The position numbers and the translations under genes were made by a program. From an uncultured Pseudomonadales bacterium (GTDB lineage: Bacteria > Patescibacteriota > Microgenomatia > UBA1400 > CAYXSR01): a stretch of DNA of 64,000 bases. Positions within the stretch are counted from its first letter, which is position 1; each line of letters opens with the position of its first letter. This document shows, one piece after another, positions 4,614 to 39,436 of this stretch. The DNA lies in NCBI GenBank assembly GCA_964430265.1, contig CAYSEI010000002.1:20769-84768 (forward strand). The letters run 5' to 3'. A model generated the notes under the pieces. That model did not search any database and had not been told where the DNA came from. It was given only the letters and a program-made list of their open reading frames with translations.

Positions 4614-5093
4614 GTGAAAAGGATACTGCCCTTAACTATCTTATTGTTTCTAATATTTACTTCTGTATCTTTTGCTGCCGGGTTTAGTTTAAAATCAATT
4701 AATGGTGTAAGTACGGACGGAACCTGGTCATCTCAATGGTATCATACTGACTTACAGCCGACACTTAGCGGAGATGCACCAGCAGAAACTGAATTAAAAA
4801 TTCTAGTTGACGGTCAGGAATACACAACTACAGCTACAGATGAGGGTCAATGGTCCTGGACGGCACCTGAGTCTCTTTCTGCGGGAGATCATAATATGGT
4901 TTTACAAAACAGCGGAGGAGAAATTAGTTTTACCTTAACGCTGGGTGAAGAAAATGTAGATACAAATAAGTTTGCTTCAGGTAGTGGTAGTAAAATGCCT
5001 ACTGTGGGTATAGTCAGTCCTACTTTTTTTCTTTTAGGAGCAGGGACAATTCTATTGTTAATGCCCAAATTAAAAGAAGTTCTTCTTAAATAA
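4614..5093 (+). CDS. Small secreted Ig-like surface protein with a C-terminal sorting signal (MPTVG-IVSPT + TM + basic tail). GTG start.
   Basis: A signal peptide is present. The C-terminus KMPTVGIVSPTFFLLGAGTILLLMPKLKEVLLK carries the same motif seen in the ORFs ending at 34411 and 37543. Confidence 0.55.
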   Translation: MKRILPLTILLFLIFTSVSFAAGFSLKSINGVSTDGTWSSQWYHTDLQPTLSGDAPAETELKILVDGQEYTTTATDEGQWSWTAPESLSAGDHNMVLQNSGGEISFTLTLGEENVDTNKFASGSGSKMPTVGIVSPTFFLLGAGTILLLMPKLKEVLLK

Positions 5094-5122
5094 ATAACAT
5101 TTCCTGATAAAATAAAGGGGAA

Positions 5123-5926
5123 ATGTTTAGATTTTTTAAAAAATACCAAGCTACTTTTAATACCCAAATCAAAAATACCTTTGTTTACAGAGGAATGCTA
5201 ATAATTTGGATGATTGGTTGGTTATTATCTTTTTTAACTTCTGTCTTTCTCTGGAATTCTGCCCAAACAAAAGGAAGTTTAGCCGGTTTTACTAAGGACC
5301 AAATTATAAGTTATTATTTTATTGGTATGTTTGTCTGGCAGGTAGTTGGATGGTTTCCGTTTTATACAATAATAGAGAAAATAAGAAACGGAGAAATATC
5401 TAATATGGTTATAAAACCAATCAATTTTTATTGGTATATGTTTGTTCAAGAGCTTGCTTGGCACGTAGTTAATACTTTTATTTTTTCTTTATTGTTGTTT
5501 TTTATCTTTTTTTTAGTTAGAGCTAATCTTTTTTTGCAGTTTCAATTATCTAGTGTTTTCCTCTTTATCTTAGCTTTAGCAATTGCTGCTTTTATTGTTT
5601 TTGGGATGTCTATGATTTTAAGCACACTGGCTTTTTGGTTAATTCGTGCACAAGGAGTGGCTTCTTTATTTTGGATTCTTTTGTCCCTTTTAGGAGGGCA
5701 AATGCTTCCATTACGTTTTTTTCCCAGCCAATATCAGACTTTTATCAATATTACTCCTTTTAGGTTCATGTATTCTTTCCCTATTGAAATTCTCTTGGAA
5801 GATATGGGTAAAAATGAACTAATTTATTCTTTTTCCTTGGGAATTTTTTGGGTAATATTTTTTTACTGGCTTTTTCATTTATTATGGCAAAGAGGATTAA
5901 AAAATTTTACTGCCTGGGGAAGTTAA
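5123..5926 (+). CDS. ABC-2 family transporter permease (ABC2_membrane_6-like).
   Basis: Six TM segments. The N-terminus FKKY...NTFVYRG and overall architecture resemble ABC-2 permeases. No ATPase is adjacent. Confidence 0.55.
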   Translation: MFRFFKKYQATFNTQIKNTFVYRGMLIIWMIGWLLSFLTSVFLWNSAQTKGSLAGFTKDQIISYYFIGMFVWQVVGWFPFYTIIEKIRNGEISNMVIKPINFYWYMFVQELAWHVVNTFIFSLLLFFIFFLVRANLFLQFQLSSVFLFILALAIAAFIVFGMSMILSTLAFWLIRAQGVASLFWILLSLLGGQMLPLRFFPSQYQTFINITPFRFMYSFPIEILLEDMGKNELIYSFSLGIFWVIFFYWLFHLLWQRGLKNFTAWGS

Positions 5927-6721
5927 ATGAGGATCAAAAGGTATTTAAAACTGTTTTTGGAGTTTTTTAGATTTAGTTTTAAGGCTGATATTGAATTTCG
6001 CGGTAATCTGATATTTTATACAATTGAAAATATTTTGTGGCTGATTTTAGCAGTTGTAGGTATAAACTTAATATTCGGACAGATACATTCAATTGCAGGT
6101 TGGACAAAAAATGAAGTTTTTTTAGTGTTATTTATTGGTGCATTGTTTAGTGATTTATCTTGGACTTTAATATTTCGAAATTTAAACAAGTTTTCTCAGC
6201 TAATAAGAGAAGGAACTTTAGACTATTATCTTTTGAAACCTACTAACTTGCGTTTTTTACTATCTTTTCGAATCATAGAATTTGATCACTGGATAAGAAT
6301 TGTTCTGGAATTATTTTTAATTTATAAATACACACTTTTAACTAGCGGGTATTTATCATTTTTAAACATATTGTTATTTATTTTTGTTTTTATCTGCGGT
6401 TTTATTATTTTTTATTCAATATTTTTTGCAGCAACAATAACTAATATCTGGTTTGTTAAACTGGAAAACTTGGTTCATTTGTTTCAAAATATAAAAAATA
6501 TGGGTGATCGCCCGGTATATATTTATAAAAAAGGTTTTTTATTCTTTTTTTCCTTTATTCTGCCAATTGGATATATTGCCACCTTTCCTGCTCAGGCTTT
6601 GATGGGGGAAATAAGTACAATAAAATTAATTGCTGGTCCTATTTTGGCAATATTTCTTTATTGGCTATCGCATAGATTTTTCAAATTCGCCTTAAAATAT
6701 TATTCGTCAGCTTCAAGCTAA
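5927..6721 (+). CDS. ABC-2 family transporter permease, partner of the 5123 ORF.
   Basis: The IREGTLDYYLLKP motif is a hallmark of the ABC-2 permease family. The protein is polytopic. Confidence 0.6.
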   Translation: MRIKRYLKLFLEFFRFSFKADIEFRGNLIFYTIENILWLILAVVGINLIFGQIHSIAGWTKNEVFLVLFIGALFSDLSWTLIFRNLNKFSQLIREGTLDYYLLKPTNLRFLLSFRIIEFDHWIRIVLELFLIYKYTLLTSGYLSFLNILLFIFVFICGFIIFYSIFFAATITNIWFVKLENLVHLFQNIKNMGDRPVYIYKKGFLFFFSFILPIGYIATFPAQALMGEISTIKLIAGPILAIFLYWLSHRFFKFALKYYSSASS

Positions 6722-6744
6722 AACTTAGTATTAAACCTGTTAAC

Positions 6745-6772
6745 TTGACAAAAAATAGTAAAAGAGTATAAT
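6745..6772 (+). promoter_or_regulatory. Near-consensus sigma70 promoter TTGACA-16-TATAAT upstream of the DUF134 operon.
   Basis: Both hexamers are perfect in the sequence. The promoter lies about 45 nt upstream of the 6818 start. Confidence 0.45.
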
Positions 6773-6817
6773 AAGTTATGAACCATAGTTCAAAAGTTAA
6801 TTGATTAAATTAAAAAC

Positions 6818-7327: not shown

Positions 7328-7365
7328 GTACAATTTAATAAAATATTAAAGAAGGGATTGCTGAT

Positions 7366-7752: not shown

Positions 7753-7818
7753 ATTATTAAATAGAAAATATTAAAGTTTTGTAGATTTAAAAGAACTTAA
7801 TTATCAAATAAGGGAAAA

Positions 7819-11838: not shown

Positions 11839-11841
11839 TAA

Positions 11842-15666: not shown

Positions 15667-15673
15667 AAATTCA

Positions 15674-24193: not shown

Positions 24194-25129
24194 ATGGCGA
24201 AAAACAAAAGAAAAATAGATTTTATTGGAATTGGTGCGCCGCGCAGTGGTTCTACATGGCTGGCTCAATGCTTATATGAACATCCAGAGATTGAATTTCC
24301 CGGCAAAAATACTGCAAAAAAACTGCATCCTTTTGATAAGGAAATAAATTTTTTTTGTGAAACTCTTTTAAGAAGCAGTTATTCACAGAAAAATCGTTAT
24401 TCAAAAGGAATTGATTGGTATCTTAATTTATTTGATTGGAAAAATACTGAAAGAATAAGGGGAGAGTTTAGTGTAGGGTACTTTGCTGATAAAAAAGCTC
24501 CTAAAAGAATAAAAAAGCATTTTCCTAAAATTAAACTAATAGCTATTTTGAGAAATCCCGTTGAAATGGTGTATTCAATTTATCATCATCTTTGTGCTTT
24601 AGTACACACAGAAATGCCTAAGAATTTTGAAACAGCTCTAGAGCAAGAAAAATATAAAAAATTACGTCTGCATTGGGGATTGTATTACAAACAACTTTCA
24701 TATTATTTAAAGTTTTTTGACCAAGATCAGTTTTGTATTGTTTTATTGGATGACGTGAAAAAAAGTCCTAAAAAAGTTGTGCAGCAAGTATATTCATTTT
24801 TAAACGTTGAATCTGATTTTCAACCTTCGGTTTTAACGCAAAAAGAAAATCAAGCTGTGAGGCCTAATTCAAAAATCTTACAAAGAGTTGGTTATAAAAT
24901 GCTAAAAGCTACAGAGAAGCTAGGGTTTAAAAGTGTTCACAACGAATTAAGCAGAAATAGGTTTCTTAAATACATTTACAACAGATATAATCTTAAAAAA
25001 CACAAATATCCTCATTTAAAATTTCAAACAAGAAAAAAACTTTTTAAATACTATAAAAAAGATATTGAAAAACTTGAAGTATTATTAGATCGTTCGTTAA
25101 ACGATTGGCTAAAATATAAAACAAATTAG
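24194..25129 (+). CDS. PAPS-dependent sulfotransferase family protein.
   Basis: 5'-PSB motif GAPRSGSTWL. 3'-PB-like LRNPVEMVYSIYHH. Confidence 0.8.
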   Translation: MAKNKRKIDFIGIGAPRSGSTWLAQCLYEHPEIEFPGKNTAKKLHPFDKEINFFCETLLRSSYSQKNRYSKGIDWYLNLFDWKNTERIRGEFSVGYFADKKAPKRIKKHFPKIKLIAILRNPVEMVYSIYHHLCALVHTEMPKNFETALEQEKYKKLRLHWGLYYKQLSYYLKFFDQDQFCIVLLDDVKKSPKKVVQQVYSFLNVESDFQPSVLTQKENQAVRPNSKILQRVGYKMLKATEKLGFKSVHNELSRNRFLKYIYNRYNLKKHKYPHLKFQTRKKLFKYYKKDIEKLEVLLDRSLNDWLKYKTN

Positions 25130-25139: not shown

Positions 25140-26333
25140 TTGTTTGCAGAAATAATAATATTTATAAGCGTCTTTTTTATTTATTATATTTTAGGCAATA
25201 ATATTAATACAGGCCACGATTTTTTTGTTCCTCTTGCAGAGGCTTTTTTAAAAGGACGGCTTTATGTTAATAAAATGGCTTATGAGTTACACGAAATGGT
25301 CTCACTGGAGGAAGTAAAAACAGGGATATATAAACAGGTTGCTGACGGAAGCAAAGGAATTTTTTATGTTATTTATCCGCCAATGCCGGCAATTTTATTG
25401 ATGCCTCTTGTTTTAATTTGGGGTCAAGATTTTAACCAAAGCCTTTTTTCCATGCTTATTTGTTCTTTGAGTTCAGTTTTTGCTTTTAGACTTTTTAAAT
25501 CACTCAATTTAAGCATAAAAAAAAGCTTTTGGCTCTTAGCTCTTTTAGTCTTTGGATCAATGCAGTGGTATCACGGAACAATAGGATCCTCTTGGTATCT
25601 TTCTTTGGCATGCGCAATGCTTTTTTTATGGATAGCAATTAGTCTGACCCTAAAAAATAAATCACTTATTTTAATTGGTTTATTTTTAGGATTTGCATAT
25701 TTATCTAGGTTTTCCGTTATATTAAGCTTTCCTTTTTTCTTGATTAACACTCAAAAATTTTGGTTTAAGAAAAAAGGATTTAAAATTAAGCCATTACTTA
25801 TGTTTTTTTCGGGAATATTTTTATGTTTAGCTATTTCTTTTTTATACAATTATTTGCGTTATGGAACAATCTGGCATATTGGATATCACTTACTTGAAAA
25901 ACGTTGGTACAATATTGCAAATGAATATGCAGACGGTTCATATAGTCTGAGTTATTGGCCTCGTCACATCAAAGCTTTATTCTGGAGTTTTCCGCATAAA
26001 ATTAATGGATTTCCCTTTTTTGAACCCAATTATCATTCAATGGCAATTTGGATAGTTATGCCGGCTGTGATTTTGGCATTTTGGGCTCCCTTTAAGAAAA
26101 AGATTGTTTGGAGTAGCTGGTTAGTAATTATTTTAATTGCCTTATCACATTTTTTTCACGGCGGAGTTGGTGCAACTCAATTTGGATATCGATATGCAAT
26201 GGATTACTTTCCATTTTTATTCATTCTTTTTGTGCAGGCAATAAAAAAGAAATTTTACTGGTGGCAAAAAGTATTGATTATATTGAGTATTATTATTAAT
26301 TTGTGGGGCGTATATTTTAGTTTCTGGAGATGA
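25140..26333 (+). CDS. Polytopic membrane protein, probable GT-C-like glycosyltransferase or accessory protein.
   Basis: About 10 TM segments. It sits in the GT-C array. No diagnostic motif was recognised. Confidence 0.4.
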   Translation: MFAEIIIFISVFFIYYILGNNINTGHDFFVPLAEAFLKGRLYVNKMAYELHEMVSLEEVKTGIYKQVADGSKGIFYVIYPPMPAILLMPLVLIWGQDFNQSLFSMLICSLSSVFAFRLFKSLNLSIKKSFWLLALLVFGSMQWYHGTIGSSWYLSLACAMLFLWIAISLTLKNKSLILIGLFLGFAYLSRFSVILSFPFFLINTQKFWFKKKGFKIKPLLMFFSGIFLCLAISFLYNYLRYGTIWHIGYHLLEKRWYNIANEYADGSYSLSYWPRHIKALFWSFPHKINGFPFFEPNYHSMAIWIVMPAVILAFWAPFKKKIVWSSWLVIILIALSHFFHGGVGATQFGYRYAMDYFPFLFILFVQAIKKKFYWWQKVLIILSIIINLWGVYFSFWR

Positions 26334-27835
26334 AAATAAACTACAAATATTTAACTTTTGAAGTGCTAATTCTAATTTTAATTCTTGGATTACCTTTGTT
26401 GCTAATGTATCAGAGTATAGGCAAAAAAGGACCAACAATTGATGAACAAAATACATATATTCCAATAGTAGAAAATTTAATTCAAGGAAATAAATATTAA
26501 AATATATCCAAGAGCTATTTTCATCCACCATTGTCTTTTTATATTTCCTCTTTGACCTCTAAAATTTTTAAAACAAAAACATCTAGAATTACAATGTTGT
26601 CTGTTTTTATAACATTAGGAGTATTTTTTTTCTATGTTTCTAAGGCTAGCTTTAATAAGCTAACGGCTTTTTTATTATTGTTAATATATGCTTGGTTTCC
26701 GGAAATTTTAGCTCATTCTCGCTTAATAACGCCTGATATGACATTAGCATGTACGACTTTTATTTATCTTTATTTCTTATATTTGCTTTTGCAAAAGCAA
26801 AACTGGAAAAGAACTTTGTTTACGGGGCTAAGTTTAGGACTGGCTTTTATAAGTAAATATACAGCTTTAATGTTGATCCCTATCTCTTTATTATTACTTT
26901 TTGTAAATTTAATAAAACCCAAAAACAATATAAAAATGAAAATTTTTAGTTTGTTTGTAGTAATAATAACTGCTTTGTTTGTTATTAATTTCAGTTATAA
27001 TTTTCAGCAAAGTTTTTCTTTACCTGAATTTGAAAGTAGAACTTTTCAAAGATTAGAATCAAATCTTATAACTAATAAATTATTAAAAACAACACCATCT
27101 TTATATTTAAAAGGCTTAGATTTTCAACTTTATCAGTCAAGTTTGGATAATAGAAGAAATTTTTTTATGCAGCAAAGATCGTCCAAAGGAATTCCTCAAT
27201 ATTTTATTGGAACTTTTTTATTTAAAACTCCTTTACCGCTGTTAATTTTATTCTCAGCTAATATTTTATTTATAATTTTTATAAGTAAGGAAAAAAACTC
27301 TTTGCATTTTTTAATTCCGGTTTTGTTCTTTTTTGTTTACTTTAGTTTTTTTAATAATTTAAATATTGGTTTTCGTTACTTACTGATGATTTATCCATTA
27401 CTTATTTTTAGTTTAGGGGAATTTTTTGATTACATTTGCAAACAAAAAAAACAAATTTTTAAAATTATTCTTTTTTTATTGATAGCTTGGAATATATTAG
27501 AAACAATCAAAATACACCCTCATTATTTAGCTTATGCTAATCAATTAGCAGGAGGACCTCAAAATGGATATAAAATTTGGGCAGATTCTTCATTAGACTG
27601 GTTTCAAGACAATGATGCTTTTGGTAGATATTTAGACAAGAAACAGATTGATATCCCAATTGATCCACAACATCCTATTTTAGGAAAATTTGCTGTAAGT
27701 GTTTTTTCAATGAATAAAGAGAATTATTACGAATATCAGTGGTTAAGAGATTTAGAAAAAAAGCCTGTTGATCAATATGGATATACATGGTTAATTTTTG
27801 ATATAACAAAAGAAGATTTAGGGAAAATAGATTAA
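26330..27835 (+). pseudogene. GT-C (ArnT/PMT_2-like) glycosyltransferase gene interrupted by a single in-frame TAA at 26498-26500. It is either a pseudogene, a sequencing error or a recoding site.
   Basis: A 56-aa upstream ORF (MKINYKYLTFEVLILILILGLPLLLMYQSIGKKGPTIDEQNTYIPIVENLIQGNKY) lies in the same frame as the 26531 ORF. Reading through the TAA gives ...GNKY*NISKSYFHPPLSFY..., which restores the canonical TM1, DE-loop and HPPL N-terminus of GT-C enzymes. The ATG at 26330 overlaps the upstream TGA stop (ATGA). Confidence 0.55.
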
Positions 27836-27849
27836 ATAAATACTAATAA

Positions 27850-29502
27850 ATGAATAAGAAAATAAGAATACTGATACTTTTAATTTTTTTTACTTTAGGT
27901 TTAGTTTTAAGATTGTATAAATTAGGGTTAATACCGCCCGGTACTAATTGGGATGAAACAGTCGTTGGTTATACCGGTTATTCAATTCTAAAAACTGGGA
28001 AAGATGAATGGGGGAAAAAAATACCTATTTTTACTAAAGGTTTTGGTGATTATCGTTCCGCGGTATATTCTTATCTAACGACTGTTCCTATTAAGATATT
28101 TGGATTAACGCCTTTTGCTATACGGTTTCCTGCAGCTGTTTTAGGTTCAACCGGAATAATTGCCTTTTATTTTTTAATAAAAAATTTATTTGAATTTTAT
28201 AACTTAAAGGGGAAATCAAAGAATATCGCTGTTATTGGTGCGTTTTTATTTACAATTAATCCTTGGAACTTCTTTTTTAGCCGTTATGGCTTTGATGTGA
28301 GTAGTTGTTTTATATTTGGATTGTTCTCACTGACGTTTGTTTTTTTATTTTTAAACAAAAAAAAATATCTGCATTTATTTTTTTCAATTATTTTTGCTTG
28401 TTTAAGCATATATAGCTATCATAATGCAAGAATTGTGATTCCTTTTGTTTTTTTATTTTTATTTGTACAGAATTTTTCTATATTTATTAAAAATAGAAAG
28501 CAAATAGCATTAGTTTTTTTAACGGGTATTCTTTTATTTTTGCCTTTTTTGATATATGTAAAAACAGGCTTTCTATCAATAAGAACAAAAGAGCTTTCAA
28601 TATTTTCTAATTATTGGAAAAAACATGAATTAGAAAAATTACTAGTAAAAAGCACATTTTTAAGAAGTTTTGCTTTTTTTTATAAATATTTTTTTTACTT
28701 TCAGGAAATATTTAAAAATATCTTAAGAAATCTTTCTTTAAAATTTCTTTTCTTAGGAGAGGATTTACATTATCGTTTTGGAATTAAATACTACGGAAGG
28801 TTTTTATATCCTAGTTTAATTTTTTTGTTTTTAGGACTTTTCAAAATATGGACCAGGAATAAAAAATTGTTTGCTTTTTTAACATCTTTTATTTTAGTAT
28901 CTACGTTGCCAGCGGCATTAACAGTAGACAGCCCTCATCCTTTAAGAGTATATTTTCTTTTAATTCCTTTATTAATAATCATAACTTTTGGTATTTATTA
29001 TTCATTTAAAGGAAAAGCTATTAAATTTAAGCGCAGATTCTTAACAGGTGCTTTTATAGTCTATATGTTGTTTTTATCTTTATATATAAATGCTTACTTT
29101 AATTTTTTTAATGAGGAAGCGGATCAAAATTGGCAGTATTTTTATAGAGAATTAGTAGAATCTATAGATAATCAGTATAAAGATTATAATAGGATTTTAT
29201 TTGATATTCATTGGGGACAACCACATATATTTATGTTTTTTTATCAAAAAATAGATCCTTTAATTGTACAAAAAGAAATGAACAGAAAGGATCAGCTTAG
29301 CGAATCTCGTGGGGTTGTTAGCAGATTTCAAAATATTCATTTCAAAGATGTCCATGAGAGTGATATATTAAATTGTCATAATTGTTTAATAATTGAAGAT
29401 GAAAAGAGAACAAAGTTAGAGAAAAATAAAGTTGTAAAGGAATTAGAAAACATAAAACTGAATAACGGAAATACTATTTTTTGGATATATAAAACGATAT
29501 GA
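27850..29502 (+). CDS. GT-C fold glycosyltransferase, family 39/83-like (ArnT/PMT_2).
   Basis: The first loop NWDETVVGYTGYSILKTGKDEWGKKIPIF, a polytopic N-terminal half and a C-terminal soluble region. Confidence 0.7.
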   Translation: MNKKIRILILLIFFTLGLVLRLYKLGLIPPGTNWDETVVGYTGYSILKTGKDEWGKKIPIFTKGFGDYRSAVYSYLTTVPIKIFGLTPFAIRFPAAVLGSTGIIAFYFLIKNLFEFYNLKGKSKNIAVIGAFLFTINPWNFFFSRYGFDVSSCFIFGLFSLTFVFLFLNKKKYLHLFFSIIFACLSIYSYHNARIVIPFVFLFLFVQNFSIFIKNRKQIALVFLTGILLFLPFLIYVKTGFLSIRTKELSIFSNYWKKHELEKLLVKSTFLRSFAFFYKYFFYFQEIFKNILRNLSLKFLFLGEDLHYRFGIKYYGRFLYPSLIFLFLGLFKIWTRNKKLFAFLTSFILVSTLPAALTVDSPHPLRVYFLLIPLLIIITFGIYYSFKGKAIKFKRRFLTGAFIVYMLFLSLYINAYFNFFNEEADQNWQYFYRELVESIDNQYKDYNRILFDIHWGQPHIFMFFYQKIDPLIVQKEMNRKDQLSESRGVVSRFQNIHFKDVHESDILNCHNCLIIEDEKRTKLEKNKVVKELENIKLNNGNTIFWIYKTI

Positions 29503-30743
29503 AAATTTGGATAAAAACTCTAGTTGTATTTGGAATTTGTTTGCTAAGTTTATTATTGCGTTTTAAAGTCTTTCCATACAAAACTCATTGGTCGGACATG
29601 TTTTTTTGGAAGGACTGGGGAAGAGGAATACTTGAATATGGTACTAAAGGTTTTTATAAACAATTCGGCTCAGATTATCTACCATTTTATCCGCTTGTTT
29701 TGGGTGTAGTTAAAACAATTTATAATTATACACACGAACTTCTTAATATAAAAGATATTTATTACTACAAATTTCCCGCGGCAATTTCCGATATTTTTTT
29801 TGGTTATTTAATTTTTAGATTTTTAAAGGAAGTAAAGAATTATAAAGCCGGAATTTTAGGAATGATTTTATTTCTTTTTAATCCCGCTGTATTTGCAAAC
29901 TCAAGTATGTGGGGGCAAGTGGATGTGATAGGTACTTTATTTTTATTTGCCGGTTTTTATCTTTTATATAAGAAGAAATATTGGGTATCCGGATTGTTTT
30001 TGGGGTTATCTTTAGTTACTAAAGCCTTGTATTTAATAGCTATCCCGTATTTATTTTTACTATTTTTTAGAAAAGAGGATTTTTACATAAATATACATAG
30101 GAAAATTCTTAAAAAATGTTTCTTAGTTTTTCTGGGAATATTAGTTTCAATAATAGTTATTACTTTGCCTTTTGTAGAAGGTGGTCTTTTTGCAGTTTTT
30201 AAGTTTTTGTTTGAACGCTATAAGATTATTAGTGAAAGATATCCTTATACTTCAGTAAATGCATTTAATTTTTGGGGATTGGTGGAAAAAGAATTCTGGC
30301 TTTCTGATAAAAGAGGACCTTCCTTTTTGACTTATAACAAATGGGGAACACTAATTACTCTTTTATTGATTGCAGCTGTTTATATAAAAGGTTTTTTAAA
30401 TGCAATAAGAAAAAAATGGTTTTATTCTTTAGTTTTGGGGATATCTTTATTATTTTATTCCAGTTTTTTATTTTTGACCCGGATGCATGAACGGCACTTT
30501 TTTTATGTTATTCCCTTTTTAGCAGTTGCTGCGGTTATTAAGCACAGATTAATAATTGCTTATTTAATTACTAGTTTAACTTACTTATTAAGTTTGCACT
30601 TTGCTCTGGAATATTATTATCAGGCCAAAGCATATGTTTTTTCGTCTTTGCAGATCAATTTAATCAGCGGAGCCAATGTACTAGTGTTTTTTTGGTTATT
30701 GTTTGAGTTTTTACTTTTGACAAAAAATGAAAAAAAAATATAA
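29499..30743 (+). CDS. GT-C-like polytopic membrane protein, paralog A of a three-member tandem family.
   Basis: Shares YKFPAAISDIFFG, YPYTSVNAFNFW and LFLTRMHERHFFY motifs with the next two ORFs. Confidence 0.6.
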   Translation: MKIWIKTLVVFGICLLSLLLRFKVFPYKTHWSDMFFWKDWGRGILEYGTKGFYKQFGSDYLPFYPLVLGVVKTIYNYTHELLNIKDIYYYKFPAAISDIFFGYLIFRFLKEVKNYKAGILGMILFLFNPAVFANSSMWGQVDVIGTLFLFAGFYLLYKKKYWVSGLFLGLSLVTKALYLIAIPYLFLLFFRKEDFYINIHRKILKKCFLVFLGILVSIIVITLPFVEGGLFAVFKFLFERYKIISERYPYTSVNAFNFWGLVEKEFWLSDKRGPSFLTYNKWGTLITLLLIAAVYIKGFLNAIRKKWFYSLVLGISLLFYSSFLFLTRMHERHFFYVIPFLAVAAVIKHRLIIAYLITSLTYLLSLHFALEYYYQAKAYVFSSLQINLISGANVLVFFWLLFEFLLLTKNEKKI

Positions 30744-31938
30744 AAAACTTCTTATTTATTTAATAGTTGGATCAGTTATTTTAGTTATCCGCTATATTCT
30801 CAGTTTAAGAAAATATAATCTAGACATCTTAAATCATGCAGTTTGGACAGAAAAAGCCTTAGCTGATGGATTAAAAGGGTATTATAAAAGAATATATTCT
30901 CCCTATGCAGAAGCAAACTATCCGCCTTTTGCAAACCTGCTTTTTTATTTGTCACATAAAACTTATAGGATGCTAGGTTATTCCGGAGGTTTGAATAATC
31001 TTTTGGCTGCTTTTTATAAAATTCCTTTGATAATTGCTGATTTAATAATTGTTTTTTTATTGTTTAATATTTTTAAAAATAAAAAGAAAAAATTTAAAAA
31101 ATATTTTTATCCTTTCTTTTTTTTAATTAATATTGCTTTAGTTTATAACAGTGTTTACTGGGGGCAGTTGGAAAGTGTGATAACCCTGTTTTGTATGCTT
31201 TCCTTATATTTTCTTTTTAAAGAACCCAATTTATTAGCCTATGTTTTTTTTGCTTTGGCAGTTCTGACAAAACAGACAGCACTGGTTTTAACGCCGCTGT
31301 TTTTTTTACTCAGCTTAAAAAAACTTAATATAAAAAAAACAATTGTAGGAATGGGAATAATATATTTGATCATTTTTATCTTTTTTATTCCTTTTACAGG
31401 CAAAATTGATTTTTTTTATCCAGTGAGATTTTATTTGCAAACTTCAGGCGGACAACTTCACCAGAATCAAGCGACCGTAAATGCTTTTAATTTCTGGTTT
31501 TTATTAGGACAAAACAAAATTTCAGACAGCACCACCCTTTGGAAGTTGATTGATTATCGTCTGGTTTCAATTCTGATATGTTTATTATTTTTCTTGCCGA
31601 TATTAATAAAAGTATATAATAAAAAGCCTAAAATAATTTCAGTTTTTAAAGCTGCAGGACTTTTATTTTACATAGTCTTTCTTTTTTTAACCCGGATGCA
31701 TGAAAGGCATCTTTATCCTGCATTAGCGTTTTTAATTCCCGGTTTAAATTCAATTATTAGTCTATTATTGTATGTTATAATTTCATTTATACATTTTTTT
31801 AATATGGATTTTGTTTGGCAGGAAATGATGGCAGATCCTATACCTTCAACAATTTTTAAAGGTAAAATAATGGCAGGGATTCTTTTAGCAATGTTCGTTT
31901 ATTTTTATACAAATTTTTTGATAAGAAAAGAAAAATGA
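30727..31938 (+). CDS. GT-C-like polytopic membrane protein, paralog B.
   Basis: FYKIPLIIADL, QATVNAFNFW and LFLTRMHERHLYPAL motifs. Confidence 0.6.
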   Translation: MKKKYKKLLIYLIVGSVILVIRYILSLRKYNLDILNHAVWTEKALADGLKGYYKRIYSPYAEANYPPFANLLFYLSHKTYRMLGYSGGLNNLLAAFYKIPLIIADLIIVFLLFNIFKNKKKKFKKYFYPFFFLINIALVYNSVYWGQLESVITLFCMLSLYFLFKEPNLLAYVFFALAVLTKQTALVLTPLFFLLSLKKLNIKKTIVGMGIIYLIIFIFFIPFTGKIDFFYPVRFYLQTSGGQLHQNQATVNAFNFWFLLGQNKISDSTTLWKLIDYRLVSILICLLFFLPILIKVYNKKPKIISVFKAAGLLFYIVFLFLTRMHERHLYPALAFLIPGLNSIISLLLYVIISFIHFFNMDFVWQEMMADPIPSTIFKGKIMAGILLAMFVYFYTNFLIRKEK

Positions 31939-34406
31939 TCTTATGGGTTTTAGGTATTAGCTTCTTATTTCGTTTGTTTATTGCTCAATATGGCACTTTG
32001 CAACTGGATATGAATGCTTTTATTTATTGGAGCAACCGTCTGATTCAAGTAAATTGGACTAGTTTTTATGAAGTCTGGTGTGATTATTTACCTACGTATT
32101 TATATATTCTTGCAGGTTTAGGCTATTTAAAGAATTTTTTCGTTTCCGTTGGAATTAATCTACCGGAATTTGTAATTTATAAATTGCCTTCGATTTTTGC
32201 AGACATCGGTATGGGTTGGATGATTCATAAAATATTTAAGCAAAATAATAAAAAAAAGCTGGGAATAATTGCTGCGCTTGTTTATTTGCTAAACCCGGCT
32301 ATATTTGGCAATTCAACTTTATGGGGACAAGCAGATAGTTTATTTGCTTTTGCAACTCTATTAAGTTTTTATCTTTATTATAAAAAAAATTATTTATCTG
32401 CCAGTATGTTATTGGCGGCTACAAGTTTACTTAAACCTTTAGGATTTTTATTGGTACCAGTTTTTGTTTTTGATCTTTGGAAAAAAGAGAAAATAAAAGA
32501 AATAATCTATTCCGGTACAGTTTTTATTCTTTTTTCTTTTCTGCTTTTTTTGCCTTTTTCCAGTGGAAACATGTTAAATTTTATAATTTCTAGATTTTCA
32601 CAAACCTTTAACCAGTACCCTTATACTACTCTTAATGCTTTTAATTTCTGGCAGTTTCTTGATATGAACTGGGTTAAAGACTCGCTTAAGTTTATTGCGA
32701 TGAGCTATCAAAACTGGGGGATAATATTGTTTGCGCCTTTTTATTTTACTTTTTTAAAGCAGTTTTCCCAACAAAAAAGTATTTTTAAAAAGAGTTTAAT
32801 AATCGGTTTGGTTTTCTATTTTAATTTTTTGTTTACCACCCGAATGCATGAAAGACACTTGTTTACTGCCCTGCCTTTTTTACTGCTAGGAATGGGAGAA
32901 GATAAAACAATCGGATTTTTTTATGTTTTAGCTTCTTTAACTTACAGTTTGAACCTTTATTATGCCTGGCGTTCAATTGAAAAAAGGAATTTTGTTTTAA
33001 GCAGTTTTTTAATTAAAACACTTTCTTTAACAAACATTTTAAACGCAATGGCTTTATTTTTAAAAAATTCATTTGCTTTTATTAAAAACAATTGTGAAAA
33101 TTTATGCAGTAAAATATCTATTCTAGTACAGAGAATTGGATTAAAATCCAAACAAAAAAAATTAAATTATGAGAATATATTTTTATTAATTTTTGTTTTG
33201 TTTATTTTGTTTACCCGCTTTTATCAACTGGGTTATCCGCAAGACTATATTTATGATGAGGTTTATCATGCATTTACTGCCGGAGAAATGGCGGAAGGCA
33301 ATGTTAAAGCATGGGAATGGTGGAATAATGCACCGGAAGGCTTTGCATATGAATGGACCCATCCTCATCTTGCTAAGATTCTTATGTCTTTAGGAATCAA
33401 GGTTTTTGGTAATAATTCGTTCGGATGGCGGTTTGGTTCTGCTGTTTTTGGAACCGGAGTAATATTATTAACCTATTTGTTAGGTAAAGAAATATTTAAA
33501 AACAAAAAAATTGCTGTTGTTGCTGCTGTTCTGTTTTCTTTGGACGGAATGCTTTTAACAATGTCAAGAATTGGAATGACTGACGTTTATCTGGTATTTT
33601 TTATCCTTTTGACAATTTTATTATCCCTTAAAAAAAGAATATTTTTAGCATCCGTCAGTTTGGGAATGACAATCGGAGCCAAATGGACAGGGATTTATTT
33701 AATTCCCATAATAGGGTTAATATTAATTTGGAAGCAAGAAAAACATGACATCTTCAGTAAAAGCCTTTTAAAAAACATTTTGACATTTGTGTTTATAACA
33801 CCACTGGTTTATACAGCAACATACTTGCCTTTTTTTCTTACAGAACACACATTAACTCAGTTTTTTGAATTACAAAAAAGCATGTGGGGATATCATACAA
33901 AGCTAAAAGCAACCCACGGGTTTCAATCAGAAGCATATACTTGGCCGTTTATGATCAGACCTGTCTGGTTTTGGGTAGATTATCAAAAAAATAAAATAGC
34001 CAATATTTATAATTTAGGTAATCCTTTACTTTGGTGGAGTAGTTTAACAATTTTGCCAATATATATTTATCGTAGTATTGAAAAATATATGGAAAAAAAG
34101 AAAAAGAACATGCTTATTTTAATACCTGCATATTTTGTGTTCTGGGTTCCTTGGATTTTTTCACCCCGAGTTATGTTTTTGCATCATTATCTTCCAGCAC
34201 TGCCGTTTTTGTTTCTTATGAATGCGTGGTTTTGGGTTAAAGAGATAAAAGAATTAGTAACTGAAAATAAAACCTATTATTTAATTACCCTAACTTATTT
34301 GGCCATTATATTTATTACCTTTTTATATTTTTTACCGATTTATATAGGAATTCCTCTGCCAAAAAATCGCCTTGATTGGTGGTTTTGGTTTTCAACTTGG
34401 AAGTAA
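31935..34406 (+). CDS. Fusion protein: an N-terminal paralog-C GT-C domain fused to a C-terminal PMT-family (GT39) protein O-mannosyltransferase-like domain.
   Basis: The N-terminal half has IYKLPSIFADIG, YPYTTLNAFNFW and LFTTRMHERHLF. The C-terminal half has DEVYHAF...THPHLAKIL...FSLDGMLLTMSRIGMTD, typical of the PMT family, and a PMT_4TMC-like tail YHTKLKATHGFQSEAYTWPF. Confidence 0.75.
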   Translation: MILWVLGISFLFRLFIAQYGTLQLDMNAFIYWSNRLIQVNWTSFYEVWCDYLPTYLYILAGLGYLKNFFVSVGINLPEFVIYKLPSIFADIGMGWMIHKIFKQNNKKKLGIIAALVYLLNPAIFGNSTLWGQADSLFAFATLLSFYLYYKKNYLSASMLLAATSLLKPLGFLLVPVFVFDLWKKEKIKEIIYSGTVFILFSFLLFLPFSSGNMLNFIISRFSQTFNQYPYTTLNAFNFWQFLDMNWVKDSLKFIAMSYQNWGIILFAPFYFTFLKQFSQQKSIFKKSLIIGLVFYFNFLFTTRMHERHLFTALPFLLLGMGEDKTIGFFYVLASLTYSLNLYYAWRSIEKRNFVLSSFLIKTLSLTNILNAMALFLKNSFAFIKNNCENLCSKISILVQRIGLKSKQKKLNYENIFLLIFVLFILFTRFYQLGYPQDYIYDEVYHAFTAGEMAEGNVKAWEWWNNAPEGFAYEWTHPHLAKILMSLGIKVFGNNSFGWRFGSAVFGTGVILLTYLLGKEIFKNKKIAVVAAVLFSLDGMLLTMSRIGMTDVYLVFFILLTILLSLKKRIFLASVSLGMTIGAKWTGIYLIPIIGLILIWKQEKHDIFSKSLLKNILTFVFITPLVYTATYLPFFLTEHTLTQFFELQKSMWGYHTKLKATHGFQSEAYTWPFMIRPVWFWVDYQKNKIANIYNLGNPLLWWSSLTILPIYIYRSIEKYMEKKKKNMLILIPAYFVFWVPWIFSPRVMFLHHYLPALPFLFLMNAWFWVKEIKELVTENKTYYLITLTYLAIIFITFLYFLPIYIGIPLPKNRLDWWFWFSTWK

Positions 34407-34410
34407 AGCC

Positions 34411-35013
34411 TTAAAACATTAAACCCAGAGCCATTAATAATGCGCCACCAATAGCCAATAAAATGGTTGGTGAAACAATGCCTGCTTCCGGCATTTCTTG
34501 CTGCGGTTCTACAAACTCGGGAGAAGGAGAAGCTTGAGCAATAAATACGCTTTCTTCCGGTGTTGGTTCAGGAGTTGGAGAAGGGCTTGGGTTTGGTTCC
34601 TCTGACGGTGATAAACTGGGTGATGAAGAGGGGGATATGTTTGGCGAAGGTGTTGGTGATGGACTTGGAGAGGGGGATGGCGACGGAGAAGGATTTAATG
34701 ATGGGATTGGACTCGGTGATGGTGATGGAGAGGGGGTTAATGAGGGACTTGGATTGGGTGAAATAGATGGAGAAGGTGATGGAAGAAGAGAAGGTGAGGG
34801 GTTGGGTTGACCGACTGTAAAAGATATTTCGCAGGTTCCGTCAGCTTGGTAAAATGTTTCCGGTTCTTTGGGTGCTTCACTGACTGCTGGCTTTGGTGAT
34901 TCTTCCGGAAGTTTCTTTGATTGATAAAGTTTAAAAGCAGTATAAGCAGCAACAACTGCTAAAACAATAGTTACTGTAATAATACTAATACTTAATACTT
35001 TGTTTTTATTCAT
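34411..35013 (-). CDS. Ser/Pro-rich repeat surface protein with a C-terminal sorting signal (MPEAG-IVSPT + TM).
   Basis: An N-terminal signal anchor. A tract of about 90 aa made of (N)PSPSxS repeats. The C-terminus EMPEAGIVSPTILLAIGGALLMALGLMF. Confidence 0.65.
   Translation of the reverse strand: MNKNKVLSISIITVTIVLAVVAAYTAFKLYQSKKLPEESPKPAVSEAPKEPETFYQADGTCEISFTVGQPNPSPSLLPSPSPSISPNPSPSLTPSPSPSPSPIPSLNPSPSPSPSPSPSPTPSPNISPSSSPSLSPSEEPNPSPSPTPEPTPEESVFIAQASPSPEFVEPQQEMPEAGIVSPTILLAIGGALLMALGLMF
34560..34800. repeat. Degenerate short tandem repeats encoding the (PSPS)n tract.
   Basis: Repeated ggtgatgg/ggagaggg-type units on the plus strand. The region lies inside the 34411-35013 CDS. Confidence 0.55.
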
Positions 35014-35015
35014 AT

Positions 35016-36359
35016 TTAATTACCCGATTTACTATTCCAGCCACCTGCCTTACCCCAATCTGTGCATAGAGGAAATCCTTCAGTTGCACAAGCTCTGCAC
35101 TGAACAACATATTCACCTGCTCTTGACGGCACTGTTAAAGTGGCAGGAACACTTTGTCCTAGATTATCACTGTCTTCAGCAATATCTGTGGCAAATTCAA
35201 CTGTTTGTGTATTTCCTTCTTCAGTAATAAAATAACGGAAATCATAAACATTTGTAGCGTTGTAGGATACATTTAATGAATTGTGTTTACAAACCAGTTC
35301 AATTTCATCCCCAAACTGGTATTCTTCTTTGACCGGAGAATATTCTAAATTATCACATACAAAGTTTTGTTCTAGTTCTAAGGAGAGAGAATTACTACAG
35401 GCGGTACAAGCAGTTGTTGCTGTATTACAATGTCCCCCCGGATTACCGGTACACCATAAATTTTTCTGATCAAAGACATTAGCAATAACAGTATATGTGC
35501 CAGGCTTTAAATTGGAAGTATCCCAAGTAACTTGGTTATCAGATTCATTAGGATCAGAAATTTTCTGCCATGAAGCCTTGCAAAAATCTCCGGTATCAGT
35601 AGTGTAATGAAAAGTTGTTTTTTGCAATTGACCTTCAGGATCACTGATGGTAGCAGTAAGCAATTTTTGATTGTCTCCTTCACCTGTGTTTGTCACACTT
35701 AAGTTTGTACAGTCAGGTGGTTGATTTGCAGGAGGTTCTATCCACATCCACCAAGTTTTAAGATTTTTTTCTTGATTATGACTATGGTTAAAACTAAAGC
35801 AATCTAAATAGTTATCATCATCATTGTCTGGAGTTTCCCATCCAGGATCCCAGGAATAGTCACCTCTTTTGGCATTAAGATCACCTTCATTGTCCGCACA
35901 TAACCACCAAAATCCTTCTTCAGAGTTTTCGGCTGCTGAAGGTGGAGCATATCTGCCTATTTCAGAACGCATGGGATGAAGATAAGAGCGACTACCCCCA
36001 CAGGAAAAATCAGCATCACCATCTTCGTAAAATCTTCCATCTTCATTTGTTTGTTTTAGTTTACACCACTGGGTATCACTGCAAGCATCCTCATTTTCAT
36101 AACCGCCACAACCTCCGTCTGTATTAGTTTTATCTTTATTTAGCATCATAAACTTTTCATCAGTAATTGGAAAAAAGGTTTCTGTTGCATTATCTTTATT
36201 CTTCATTAAGTTGGTATCGCATTTGTTTACACAGTTTGCTGCTCCTTCTTTACAAATCCATGCCCATCCGGTCCATTCCCAATAAGCAAAAGCAGAATGA
36301 GGTTTAAATATGAAAAAGAAGAAGATTAAAAAAAATGGTAAGTATCTTAATTTTTTCAT
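35016..36359 (-). CDS. Secreted Cys/Trp-rich protein with an Ig-like domain. Possibly an adhesin.
   Basis: A signal peptide MKKLRYLPFFLIFFFFIFKPHSAFA. About 28 Cys residues. An Ig/PKD-like segment NLKPGTYTVIANVFD. Confidence 0.6.
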   Translation of the reverse strand: MKKLRYLPFFLIFFFFIFKPHSAFAYWEWTGWAWICKEGAANCVNKCDTNLMKNKDNATETFFPITDEKFMMLNKDKTNTDGGCGGYENEDACSDTQWCKLKQTNEDGRFYEDGDADFSCGGSRSYLHPMRSEIGRYAPPSAAENSEEGFWWLCADNEGDLNAKRGDYSWDPGWETPDNDDDNYLDCFSFNHSHNQEKNLKTWWMWIEPPANQPPDCTNLSVTNTGEGDNQKLLTATISDPEGQLQKTTFHYTTDTGDFCKASWQKISDPNESDNQVTWDTSNLKPGTYTVIANVFDQKNLWCTGNPGGHCNTATTACTACSNSLSLELEQNFVCDNLEYSPVKEEYQFGDEIELVCKHNSLNVSYNATNVYDFRYFITEEGNTQTVEFATDIAEDSDNLGQSVPATLTVPSRAGEYVVQCRACATEGFPLCTDWGKAGGWNSKSGN

Positions 36360-36360
36360 T

Positions 36361-37530
36361 TTATTTAATTCTTTTTATTAAGTAATAACAACTGATATAT
36401 ATATCATCATTCACTTCAATATCATCGTCTAAATATTCACCGTCATAAACAGGAGCTATTTCGTATTCACCTATATTCATTGTTTTTGCTGTGTTTTTTA
36501 ATTCTTCATTTTGGCTATTATAAGAGTCGTTCCCGATATTTTCTTCAAAAGCAACAGTATAATCACTATTTTGAGAAGTTAATTCTTGTTTTTTTTGCTC
36601 ACAAAGTTCAGAAAAGTTTTCTCTGTTTTCAGCTTTTTGTTTAATATCTTCCAATACGTTTTGAGTTTCTTGTTTTAATTGTTCTACCGGACTTATTGGT
36701 GGTTTAACGTTCCAAAAGCATATTCGACATTGATCTACCCAGGCAGAGCTTTCATCAACAGTTTTTGTTTTGATTAAAGCTGGATCGGCTTGAGATATTG
36801 GTTTTACTTGCTTTTCACTTTCTTGTTCTTGTTGAGAGTCTTCTTTTTGTTCTAAAGTATTATTCTGATTTTTATTCTGAGTTTCTTGAATATAATTTTC
36901 ATTTTTACTGAATAAGAAAGAGAAATTCATTTTGTTTTTTAAAATAAAGAAAAAAATTGCAATTAAAATAAGAGTTATTAGTAAGGGTAATAGAAAAATA
37001 ATTTTAGGTATACCTTTTGATTTTTGTTTTTCAGGTGTTTTAATATCATTTGGGGAAGTGTTATCGTTGTTCTGAATTTTGTGTGGTTTCTGAGGTGTTT
37101 CTAATTCCTTGTCTTGATTACTTTGTTTATCAGGTGATATTTTGTCATTTTGTATATTGTTTGATTCTGTTTTTGAGGTTTCCGGATTTTCCTTTGGAAC
37201 AGTAGAATCAATTCCTTCTTTTTCAATTTGTTTATCTACAAAGTTATTAGATACACTTTTATTATTAATAGGTTTTGTTACTGGTTCTGAGTTTTTTTTG
37301 CTCTTGTTTGATTTTTTTTTATTATGCCCTTCCGATGTTTCAGAGTCGGTTTTATTAGTAGAATTATCAAATGTATTTTCCATATTTTTATTCATAGGCT
37401 TAGGAGGCTCTGTTATTTTTTGCCCATTATCTGGGTTAGATTTTAGACTTGAATTTATTGCTTTCTGTGCCTGCTCTTCAAGATTAGATAATGAGTTATT
37501 TGAATTATTTGTTTCTTTTTGTTTATTCAT
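36361..37530 (-). CDS. Low-complexity N/K/Q/S/E-rich protein with a single central TM helix.
   Basis: A central IPKIIFLLPLLITLILIAIFFFILK helix. The compositional bias creates an antisense ORF, which is rejected. Confidence 0.5.
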   Translation of the reverse strand: MNKQKETNNSNNSLSNLEEQAQKAINSSLKSNPDNGQKITEPPKPMNKNMENTFDNSTNKTDSETSEGHNKKKSNKSKKNSEPVTKPINNKSVSNNFVDKQIEKEGIDSTVPKENPETSKTESNNIQNDKISPDKQSNQDKELETPQKPHKIQNNDNTSPNDIKTPEKQKSKGIPKIIFLLPLLITLILIAIFFFILKNKMNFSFLFSKNENYIQETQNKNQNNTLEQKEDSQQEQESEKQVKPISQADPALIKTKTVDESSAWVDQCRICFWNVKPPISPVEQLKQETQNVLEDIKQKAENRENFSELCEQKKQELTSQNSDYTVAFEENIGNDSYNSQNEELKNTAKTMNIGEYEIAPVYDGEYLDDDIEVNDDIYISCYYLIKRIK

Positions 37531-37542
37531 TATTTAGCTTAA

Positions 37543-38976
37543 TTATTGCTTTTTATAACTTTGCTTGTCAATTGAAAAAGATATAAATGACCCTCCTGCA
37601 AGTAAAATTAATCCAAAGATCAGTGTAAAAAATGTAGGACCAACAATTCCAGTTTCTGGAACACCACTATCTGTTGCAGGCATAGTGGCTCTGCTATCTG
37701 GTGATGGAGAGGGTGAAGGCTGAGGACTAGGTGATGTTTGAGCAGATGGGGTAGCTGTAAACTCGGGTTCATTTTCGGATGTTTCTAATATTTCAAAACT
37801 ACGGCTAATATTTTTTTGTGATCCACTATCGTCAATATATGTAATAGAAACACTATTCCTTCCGGTTGTAAGATTTTGACTTGGCTGAAACTCCCAATTC
37901 TTCTCTTCATTAATAGTTACAGTTTTAACAATTTCAGGGTCTTCAATTTCAACTGTTAAGACTTTTCCGACTGGTCCAGTCCCTCTAAATCTGGGTTTTT
38001 GCGTTGATAATTTTTGATTTGCTTCCGGATAAGTTATTTTTACTGAATTAATTGTCTCCCCTGAGTTATCAACGGGATCTAGAGGAAAGCTTTCAGGGGT
38101 TTGTCCTCCAGTTTCTGGTTGTTCCTGCTCTGATTCACTGGGAACAACGTTCTCTTCGTTTTCGTTTGGCTTAGCTGCTAGTTGATTGTTCTCATCAGAT
38201 TCCGGAGTTTCTGTAAAATTATAAGAAGCTTGTGCAAGGTTTATTACTTGAGGTAAAGGGGAAATATTTCCAGAACTTGCAATTATATCCGTTTTTTGTT
38301 CTCCGCCAAAAACCTCTATACTAATAGTAGTGTTTTTTTCATCTATTATTGCCCAACTGCCTAAATCTTTGCTGCGGCTTTTATTAAGCATAAGTACCCA
38401 TCCACCTTGTTTGTCACTTAAGGTTGCTTGTGGTGCGCTGTTAGGAGTAGTTAAAACAACAATTGCTCCTTCAGCAGGAGATTTGTCTTGATTAATAATA
38501 GTTCCGCTTGCCATTTGTGCTTTTCCCGGACTTCCTAAGGACGGACCGGTAACAATTTCATATGAAGATCCTTCATTATCATATAAGTTTTCTTTGATCC
38601 CTGTTCCTGCTCCAATTTTAAAATAATATTTTTTTTCCGGTTCCAAGTTTTTAATAGTTGCCAGATGGGTTTTAAACTCACTTTTTTCTCCGCTTTGTTC
38701 ATCACGATTATCGTTTGCAACTTGATCCAGTTTTGACGGGCTCTCGCCGTATTTGATAAACCCGACTTCAGGCTTATCTGTTGTCCAGCTAACGGTAAAT
38801 TCATTATCAGTAACTGAACTTATACGAATGTTTTTAGGAGATGAGGTTGTGGTTGGGGTAATATTTTTTAAAAAAGAATTCTTTCCCAAGATAAAAACTG
38901 CAACTGCAATACCAGCAGCTAAAATTGAAAGCCCAATAAGAGTGGGAATTCTTTTTTCAAAAAAACTTTTATTCAT
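37543..38976 (-). CDS. FN3-domain surface protein with a C-terminal sorting signal (VPETG-IVGPT + TM + KKQ tail).
   Basis: The start is taken at MNKSFFEKRI (internal Met, 8-nt overlap with the upstream gene). An FN3-like block ISSVTDNEFTVSWTT...YYFKIGAG. A PSPQPSPSPSP linker. The C-terminus GVPETGIVGPTFFTLIFGLILLAGGSF...KQSYKKQ. Confidence 0.65.
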   Translation of the reverse strand: MNKSFFEKRIPTLIGLSILAAGIAVAVFILGKNSFLKNITPTTTSSPKNIRISSVTDNEFTVSWTTDKPEVGFIKYGESPSKLDQVANDNRDEQSGEKSEFKTHLATIKNLEPEKKYYFKIGAGTGIKENLYDNEGSSYEIVTGPSLGSPGKAQMASGTIINQDKSPAEGAIVVLTTPNSAPQATLSDKQGGWVLMLNKSRSKDLGSWAIIDEKNTTISIEVFGGEQKTDIIASSGNISPLPQVINLAQASYNFTETPESDENNQLAAKPNENEENVVPSESEQEQPETGGQTPESFPLDPVDNSGETINSVKITYPEANQKLSTQKPRFRGTGPVGKVLTVEIEDPEIVKTVTINEEKNWEFQPSQNLTTGRNSVSITYIDDSGSQKNISRSFEILETSENEPEFTATPSAQTSPSPQPSPSPSPDSRATMPATDSGVPETGIVGPTFFTLIFGLILLAGGSFISFSIDKQSYKKQ

Positions 38977-39436
38977 TTTGATCTTCGCTTTCTGTTTCTT
39001 GTTCAGTATTTGATTCGTTAGTCTCTTCAGTCTCATTTTGATTTTCCGTGTCTTCCTCTGCTAGTGTTTCCTCTTCTCCTTCTTGTTGATTGTTTTCTGT
39101 TTCTGCTTCTGCTTTGTTGTTTTGTTCTGCACTTGGAGAAGAACTAAGATCTATAAATTCGCTTGAGGCAGTAGATTCCTCATTACTGAGTTCCAGGTTT
39201 TCTATGGAAACAAGCTGTTTTACTGTATCCAATTTACCTTCGGTGATATGTCTTTTTTGTTTAAGTGTGTCAATTGTTGTTGTACTGAGTTTGGGATCTA
39301 TGGGTTTAATTAATTTTTCCACATCTTCTGGTATTTCAGGATTTGTCAAAGTAATATAAATTTCCAATCCAACCCAGATGAAAATTGTGATAAAGGTTAG
39401 GATAGCAGCAGTAATTATTTTCTTATTTTTTTTCAT
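38969..39436 (-). CDS. Bitopic protein with an N-terminal TM helix and an acidic low-complexity ectodomain. Possibly a PilP-like pilus accessory protein.
   Basis: An N-terminal TM anchor. An E/T/N-rich C-terminus. A 4-nt overlap with the PilO-like gene. Confidence 0.45.
   Translation of the reverse strand: MKKNKKIITAAILTFITIFIWVGLEIYITLTNPEIPEDVEKLIKPIDPKLSTTTIDTLKQKRHITEGKLDTVKQLVSIENLELSNEESTASSEFIDLSSSPSAEQNNKAEAETENNQQEGEEETLAEEDTENQNETEETNESNTEQETESEDQNE

Follow-up and report, generated by a model that had tools for sequence, protein, structure and literature searches.

Sortases use the peptidoglycan cross-bridge as their acceptor, and to our knowledge the residue before the glycine of the sorting signal is the acyl-donor threonine in every characterised sortase substrate. 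Position 1 varies in the pilin signals of class C sortases, which read IPQTG, VPDTG or YPRTG, the class E signal is LAXTG, and several LPXTG tails begin their helix with a proline (...ENPF..., ...ANPFF...). Here we describe a C-terminal tail present on three proteins encoded in a 64-kb stretch of DNA (contig CAYSEI010000002.1), which is called the window throughout and numbered from its first letter. The organism is probably a member of the candidate phyla radiation (CPR)/Patescibacteria, as judged from its 32% GC, its gene content and the origins of related contigs; members of this group are believed to grow on the surface of other microbes, which gives their surface proteins a central role. 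The tail is a real signal that is conserved and portable between protein families, lies always at the C-terminus, and is closest to the LPXTG_anchor model. We see about an even chance that it is a lineage-specific, relaxed and extended variant of the LPXTG sortase signal.

The original prediction was that three proteins of the window share a C-terminal tail, and all three C-termini proved identical to those read at that time. Protein 1 (4614-5093, + strand, 159 aa) ends in ...KMPTVGIVSPTFFLLGAGTILLLMPKLKEVLLK, protein 2 (34411-35013, - strand, 200 aa) in ...EMPEAGIVSPTILLAIGGALLMALGLMF, and protein 3 (37543-39036, - strand, 497 aa in its longest open reading frame, ORF) in ...GVPETGIVGPTFFTLIFGLILLAGGSFISFSIDKQSYKKQ, so that all three ORFs close with the motif [M/V]PxxG-IVxPT and, after it, a hydrophobic helix. 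The tail of protein 1 (4995-5093, +) is composed of MPTVG-IVS-PT (4995-5024), the helix and a KLKEVLLK end, and that of protein 2 (34411-34494, -) of MPEAG-IVS-PT (34465-34494) and the helix, with no basic end. The tail of protein 3 (37543-37683, -) has VPETG-IVG-PT (37633-37662), the helix and a DKQSYKKQ end, and includes upstream an LPXT-like motif, MPATDSG (37663-37683). A six-frame translation of the window contains the pattern P..GIV.PT three times, exclusively in these ORFs, against an expectation of 0.0 in shuffled DNA or shuffled proteins, where even the looser pattern [LMV]P..G...PT is expected only 0.01-0.035 times. The codons used in the three tails differ (for example, AGT versus TCA for serine), which indicates that their identity was kept at the protein level and does not stem from a recent copy of the DNA; gene conversion as the origin of the common GIVxPT is ruled out by the same differences.

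The original prediction had allowed for a motif restricted to these three proteins and not conserved in their homologues; instead, orthologues of all three keep the tail, though the adjacent linkers cannot be aligned. For protein 3, 46 homologues were found, which are 26-48% identical to it with the exception of one 97% relative located on contigs under 5 kb; this relative is apparently all that represents the source genome, and an exact look-up of the 497-aa ORF gave no record. They keep the arrangement ...R-x-x-MP[S/A]T[D/E]SG-VP-x-x-G-x3-[P]-T-helix after a linker that is not alignable, and T455, P460, G463 and T468 (protein 3 numbering) are invariant or nearly so among 27 homologues, while the distant members of this FN3 family retain the upstream MP[A/S]T and have lost the proline of the second motif. 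Six homologues of protein 1 retain [M/L]PTVG-x3-PT, the helix and K/R, and the orthologues of protein 2, found at the same position of their gene cluster in related loci, read LPSAG-IAL-PT (L004), LPVVG-TSW-PT (L011/L012) and VPVAG-TGPS (L017).

The consensus of 131 non-redundant tails is [V/I/L/M]-P-x-[S/T/A/P/V]-G-x3-[P]-T-x6-G, followed by a membrane helix and usually by K/R. Residue frequencies were counted on tails anchored on G-x4-T, so that Gly 0 and Thr +5 are fixed by construction, but both are also invariant in the unforced alignments A3 and A5. Relative to this glycine, position -4 is occupied by V (49%), I (16%), L (13%), T (9%) or M (2%), position -3 by P (85%), position -1 by S (35%), T (23%), A (19%), P (13%) or V (5%), position +4 by P (66%), T (13%) or N (6%), and position +12 by G (89%). 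The layout is tripartite, with the motif, a hydrophobic stretch of at least 17 residues, and then mostly K/R, which occurs within the last 12 residues of 107 of the 131 tails and is missing from protein 2 of the window; a helix is present in every tail. The residues GIV, taken in the original prediction as a conserved extension, are limited to this genome and its 97% relative: the orthologues have GTTSPT, GFTLPT, GYLTPT, GVIENT or GSVGTT in place of GIVxPT, and in L004 and L011 the three variable positions do not agree within a genome. What is conserved as the core is P-x-x-G-x3-(P)-T-x6-G.

The proteins that carry the tail have different architectures. Protein 1 has a predicted cleavable Sec-type signal peptide (...SVSFA/AGF) and one Big_13 Ig-like domain (PF19077, 28 bits) before the tail, whereas in protein 2, whose gene is the last of a PilN/PilO-linked cluster, a long Pro/Ser-rich linker joins an N-terminal membrane helix to the tail. 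In protein 3 the N-terminal anchor is followed by an FN3/purple-acid-phosphatase-N domain, then by CarboxypepD_reg-like and Big_13 domains and by a Pro/Ser linker that leads to the tail. Its start had been placed at the Met at 38976, and the homologues all begin there, which gives a protein of 477 aa (37543-38976, -); the longest ORF, from 39036, overlaps the upstream gene by 68 bases, and the Met at 38976 leaves an overlap of 8. The N-terminus of protein 3 (38892-38976) is a highly conserved membrane segment, K-R-I-P-T-L-I-G-L-x-x-L, with no obvious signal-peptidase site in this family, in which the eight closest homologues all share I30, P31 and T32; in a set of 27, P31 never varies and T32 hardly does. 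The third of protein 3 that comprises Big_13 and the tail can be aligned with protein 1 (E = 4e-5), and protein 2 has the tail alone in common with the other two. Within the window protein 2 is the only unrelated carrier, proteins 1 and 3 sharing Big_13 as well. A large surface protein of 707 aa encoded at 813-2936 (+), with an N-terminal membrane helix and a Beta_propel match (PF09826, E = 4e-108), has no such tail.

A profile of 37 positions, built from 33 tails and compared with 1.84 billion representative proteins (E <= 0.001), matched 80 proteins, each at its extreme C-terminus; the distance from the motif to the end is 17-47 residues in all 3 window proteins and all 80 matches. The FN3/Big_13 family, as members or fragments, accounts for most of the matches, since its upstream residues were part of the profile, and the diversity of carriers is therefore underestimated by this search. 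Even so, the tail was found on a plastocyanin-type cupredoxin (P0122/P0134, QPVSG-ISG-PT), on a cohesin-Big_13 protein (P0135), on other Big_13 proteins, one of them labelled 'uncultured bacterium' in GenBank, and on a fragment with no Pfam match (P0092), in which a GSxDxGxSW stretch is BNR-repeat-like. Two tiny proteins consist of a signal peptide, a linker and the tail alone, with LPVSG-TTT-PT in P0095 and a canonical LPETG-FFG-PT in P0118. The presence of the tail on unrelated families shows that it is a modular, portable C-terminal signal that is not confined to a single family. An alignment of the three window tails run against a word-indexed protein database gave 4 candidates, none of them scoring. 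A groundwater contig (L014, 10001-10204) encodes a 67-aa protein that is only a signal peptide, a 12-residue linker and the tail, between the genes for S20 and LytR-CpsA-Psr (LCP); in other genomes this position holds the whole PilN-PilO-FN3 cluster, of which the small protein may be a deletion remnant.

When the tails were scanned alone against the NCBIfam and Pfam signal models (E <= 10), TIGR01167 (LPXTG_anchor) was the sole sorting-signal model to recur, with 9 of 33 tails matched and the V-P-x-T-G residues aligned on its LPXTG columns; the proposed resemblance to LPXTG is supported. Two orthologue tails, P0002 (15.9 bits) and P0016 (17.7 bits), reach the TIGR01167 cutoff of 15.9. The related Pfam model, PF00746, gives 13.5 bits for protein 2 and 13.9-14.3 for protein 3 (cutoff 20), and NF033073 (LPXTG_double) gives 13 bits against a cutoff of 48. 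None of the exosortase/archaeosortase signals compared (PEP-CTERM, PGF-CTERM, VPDSG-CTERM, PFE-CTERM and IPTL-CTERM) was matched meaningfully: hits fell in just 1-3 of the 33 tails each and far below the cutoffs, with a best E of 0.22 for PFE_CTERM (three tails), 8.3 (NCBIfam) and 0.1 (Pfam) for PEP_CTERM, and 6.5 for VPDSG-CTERM; GlyGly-CTERM had no match among the tails. For the window tails every named sorting-signal model tested stays under its curated threshold, in line with the original remark that the extension was not recognised among the named families. The further suggestion of a distinct signal is supported in part: the signal is real, conserved and modular, but it is not cleanly separated from LPXTG, as the two orthologue tails at the TIGR01167 cutoff show.

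No sortase-like gene had been noticed in the window, and both a motif scan and Pfam/NCBIfam scans agree. A TLxTC-type motif is absent from window ORFs of at least 70 aa, and Pfam/NCBIfam matches to sortases, exosortases/archaeosortases, rhomboids (the partner in rhombosortase systems) or CPBP proteins are likewise absent from about 36 ORFs, a set that took in all those that were sortase-sized or rich in membrane helices. The multi-pass membrane proteins of the window are all of glycosyltransferase, ABC-2, UbiA or MraY types. An unannotated 185-aa membrane protein (61838-62395) was considered as a sortase and ruled out, as it has no cysteine. The Pfam tables of 17 related loci (~250 kb) also contain no sortase, exosortase/archaeosortase, rhomboid or CPBP protein. 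Any processing enzyme must then lie outside the window, in keeping with the earlier suggestion that it is encoded elsewhere. Méheust et al. 2019 (PMC6744442) report that over half of CPR genomes, and almost all Microgenomates, have a sortase family, a closed Microgenomates genome encodes a sortase (PMC7143001), and sortases are also noted in other CPR genome papers. We found no description of the substrate signal of CPR sortases in a search of 7.7 million PMC papers and 0.34 million preprints.

The gene of protein 3 belongs to a cluster on the - strand in which it is preceded by genes for a PilN-like protein (40055-40639; PF05137, 7e-11), a PilO-like protein (39433-40053; PF04350, 6e-10) and a small membrane/acidic protein (38969-39436) located between the PilO-like protein and protein 3; members of the protein 3 family always follow PilN, PilO and the small membrane protein. 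Two cluster genes without the tail (35016-37530) separate proteins 3 and 2, and one of them codes for a 389-aa protein that has low-complexity sequence and a membrane helix at its centre. The product of the other, a Cys-rich secreted protein of 447 aa (35016-36359, -) with no Pfam match, has counterparts in L004 (3807-4484) and L001 (11437-12645), and its conserved end reads ...V(Q)C(R/Q)xCxxxxxxxC(T)xWGxxxGW. The order of the cluster is kept in eight related contigs, several of them from groundwater metagenomes: DnaJ-DnaK-GrpE-HrcA-LepA-MurJ come before S20, which is followed by the PilN-like protein, the PilO-like protein, the small membrane protein, the FN3 tail protein, a variable membrane protein, the Cys-rich secreted protein and protein 2. 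Strict order is seen in the window (34411-42697) and in L001, L003/L004, L007, L009-L013 and L017. There are no PilM, PilB, PilC or pilin genes in the cluster, and instead of a type IV pilus the PilN/PilO pair may serve some other complex of the envelope.

Cell-envelope genes adjoin this cluster, namely FemAB (20220-21266, -), LCP (23147-24175, +), a sulfotransferase (24194-25129, +) and a run of six GT-C/PMT_2/GT87-type membrane glycosyltransferases (25140-34406, +) that borders on the genes of the Pro/Ser-rich tail proteins and includes an Agl23-like match and an 823-aa PMT-like protein. Glycosyltransferases, LCP, UvrD and FemAB adjoin the cluster in related contigs too. FemAB, MurJ and LCP point to a wall of the Gram-positive type that has a cross-bridge, FemAB implying an interpeptide bridge, and the proximity of Pro/Ser stalks to PMT-type transferases suggests O-glycosylated, wall-spanning linkers. 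Rfam and tRNA scans detected tRNA-Cys alone and no rRNA. The record of L008/L001 (GCA_964467735.1, CAYXSR010000001.1) is titled 'uncultured Pseudomonadales bacterium', yet the contig has 32% GC and window-like CPR-type synteny, and the 'Pseudomonadales' label looks wrong.

If the tail is a relaxed and extended LPXTG-type signal, its carriers would be exported by Sec and retained in the membrane by the C-terminal helix and the basic end, until a membrane-bound sortase encoded elsewhere cleaves within P-x-x-G and joins the new C-terminus to a peptidoglycan precursor. The wall would then be spanned by the Pro/Ser-rich stalk, which the PMT-type transferases encoded nearby probably O-glycosylate. 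Cleavage in the FN3 family might instead take place at the upstream MP[A/S]T, which could be the real site there; this motif is strictly conserved in the family, and the more distant members keep it when the proline of the second is lost. We infer cleavage, the identity of the enzyme and the attachment of tail proteins to the wall.

The Gram-positive-type wall genes of the window (FemAB, LCP and MurJ) argue for an LPXTG-type signal, and several observations weigh against it. The acyl-donor threonine expected before the glycine is present in just 23% of the tails, with Val and Ala at this position in window proteins 1 and 2, and Pro, found there in 13%, is a further departure. G-x3-P-T followed by a glycine seven residues on (89%), with almost no indels, is a spacing that LPXTG signals lack. 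The tail of protein 1 has no match to any NCBIfam or Pfam signal model, and TIGR01167 gives only 12.9 bits for protein 2 and 13.3-13.6 for protein 3, against its cutoff of 15.9. Proteins 2 and 3 have apparently uncleaved N-terminal membrane anchors, protein 2 and several orthologues have no basic end, no sortase is encoded in the 64-kb window or in the 17 related loci (~310 kb examined in all), and the CPR placement of the host is inferred, not proven. A tail read as a Patescibacteria-type signal of its own, [V/I/L/M]PxxG-x3-PT-CTERM, would have a divergent CPR sortase or a non-sortase enzyme as partner. With a divergent sortase, the P1 threonine would no longer be needed and a 10-residue site would be read. 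With either partner the core clients would be the envelope-spanning proteins encoded together with PilN/PilO-like genes; this proposal, taken with all its parts, we put forward tentatively, as possible but on balance doubtful.

Chance, or plain paralogy of recent duplicates, is effectively refuted as the origin of the tails. The Big_13 domain common to proteins 1 and 3 (E = 4e-5) is what could be said in its favour, but three occurrences stand against the 0-0.035 expected, protein 2 has nothing beyond the tail in common with the others, the codons differ throughout, and the tail is kept across orthologues of 26-48% identity and in other families. More probable than this, though still unlikely in our view, is that the tail belongs to a distinct system, in which a non-sortase enzyme encoded elsewhere reads P-x-x-G-x3-P-T at the edge of the helix; this enzyme could be archaeosortase/exosortase-like, rhomboid-like, a CPBP-type intramembrane protein or one of a kind not yet described, and by analogy with archaeosortase A acting on PGF-CTERM proteins it might attach a lipid. 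Such a system would fit the invariant residues, which are P, G and the Thr at the helix start and not the Thr of LPXTG, as well as the position of the motif directly against the helix, an arrangement also seen in PEP-CTERM and PGF-CTERM signals. The probably glycosylated Pro/Ser/Thr-rich stalks that precede the tail, the adjacent archaeal-type glycosylation genes (PMT_2, Agl23-like) and the lack of a sortase in the ~310 kb point the same way. Nevertheless, no exosortase-type signal model scores meaningfully, no enzyme of these kinds is encoded in the window or the related loci, exosortases are not known from CPR, and the family includes some tails with a canonical LPETG or VPETG, which the LPXTG model accepts.

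A slightly less probable alternative, improbable in our view, is that the tail is a permanent, unprocessed anchor, with its conserved residues next to and within the membrane (P-T at the boundary, Gly every seven residues) used to pack helices or to dock onto the PilN/PilO-like membrane proteins. A two-anchor topology is suggested by the conserved N-terminal helices of proteins 2 and 3, contacts between helices typically show a glycine pattern like that within the tail helix (89% at +12), two of the three tail genes lie beside PilN/PilO in tight conserved synteny, and some tails have no basic end. Against this, protein 1, the cupredoxin P0134 and P0118, unrelated soluble-domain proteins with cleavable signal peptides that are encoded at a distance from the PilN/PilO cluster, also carry the tail, its best-conserved part is outside the membrane, upstream of the helix, and LPXTG tails too are rich in glycine within the helix.

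Whichever enzyme is involved, the tail motif is reproducible, is missed by current models, and was not found described. Once defined, it would let the surface-anchored proteomes of uncultured CPR be predicted from sequence, and would explain why standard LPXTG models miss such proteins. It would also supply a peptide on which CPR sortases could be tested; the P1 specificity of these enzymes may be relaxed, which would make them useful for sortase-based protein ligation. If its partner is an ordinary sortase, the result is a modest refinement of annotation; if instead the tail is a Patescibacteria-type signal of its own, no surface-anchoring code would have been defined for the CPR before it.

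Among the systems described so far, the LPXTG signal (TIGR01167/PF00746) shares with the tail the C-terminal location, the hydrophobic-Pro-x-x-Gly motif, a Gly-rich helix and, usually, a basic end, and the Ig-like/FN3 surface proteins with Pro/Ser/Thr stalks that carry the tail are also LPXTG-like. The tail lies at the end of exported proteins in the three window proteins and the 80 profile matches, and a hydrophobic segment with a positive end is found overall, with the exception of window protein 2. Family tails with VPETG, VPVTG or LPETG are again LPXTG-like, some of them reaching the cutoff of the curated model. In contrast to L-P-x-T-G with its conserved Thr, the window motifs read MPTVG, MPEAG and VPETG, position 1 is mostly Val or Ile, and the fixed G-x3-P-T is followed by the conserved Gly seven residues into the helix. 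The variant pilin and LAXTG signals resemble the tail in tolerating residues other than Leu at position 1 and in variation at position 2, but all known examples retain the Thr and none is known to have a P-T extension, and their sortases are usually encoded beside the substrates. The tandem MP[A/S]T[D/E]SG and VPxxG before a single helix give the FN3 family a likeness to NF033073 (LPXTG_double), of which it is not a member given the far sub-cutoff score, and proteins 1 and 2 have a single motif. The PEP-CTERM, PGF-CTERM, VPDSG-CTERM and PFE-CTERM signals also place a short motif at the helix start, often after a Thr/Ser/Pro-rich glycosylated linker, and some tails read literally VPDSG; unlike for these exosortase/archaeosortase signals, no model match is better than about E = 0.1-0.2 and no exosortase-family gene was seen in the window or related loci. 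This places the tail at the margin of the LPXTG class, as a relaxed pentapeptide with a fixed-spacing extension that lies outside the models.

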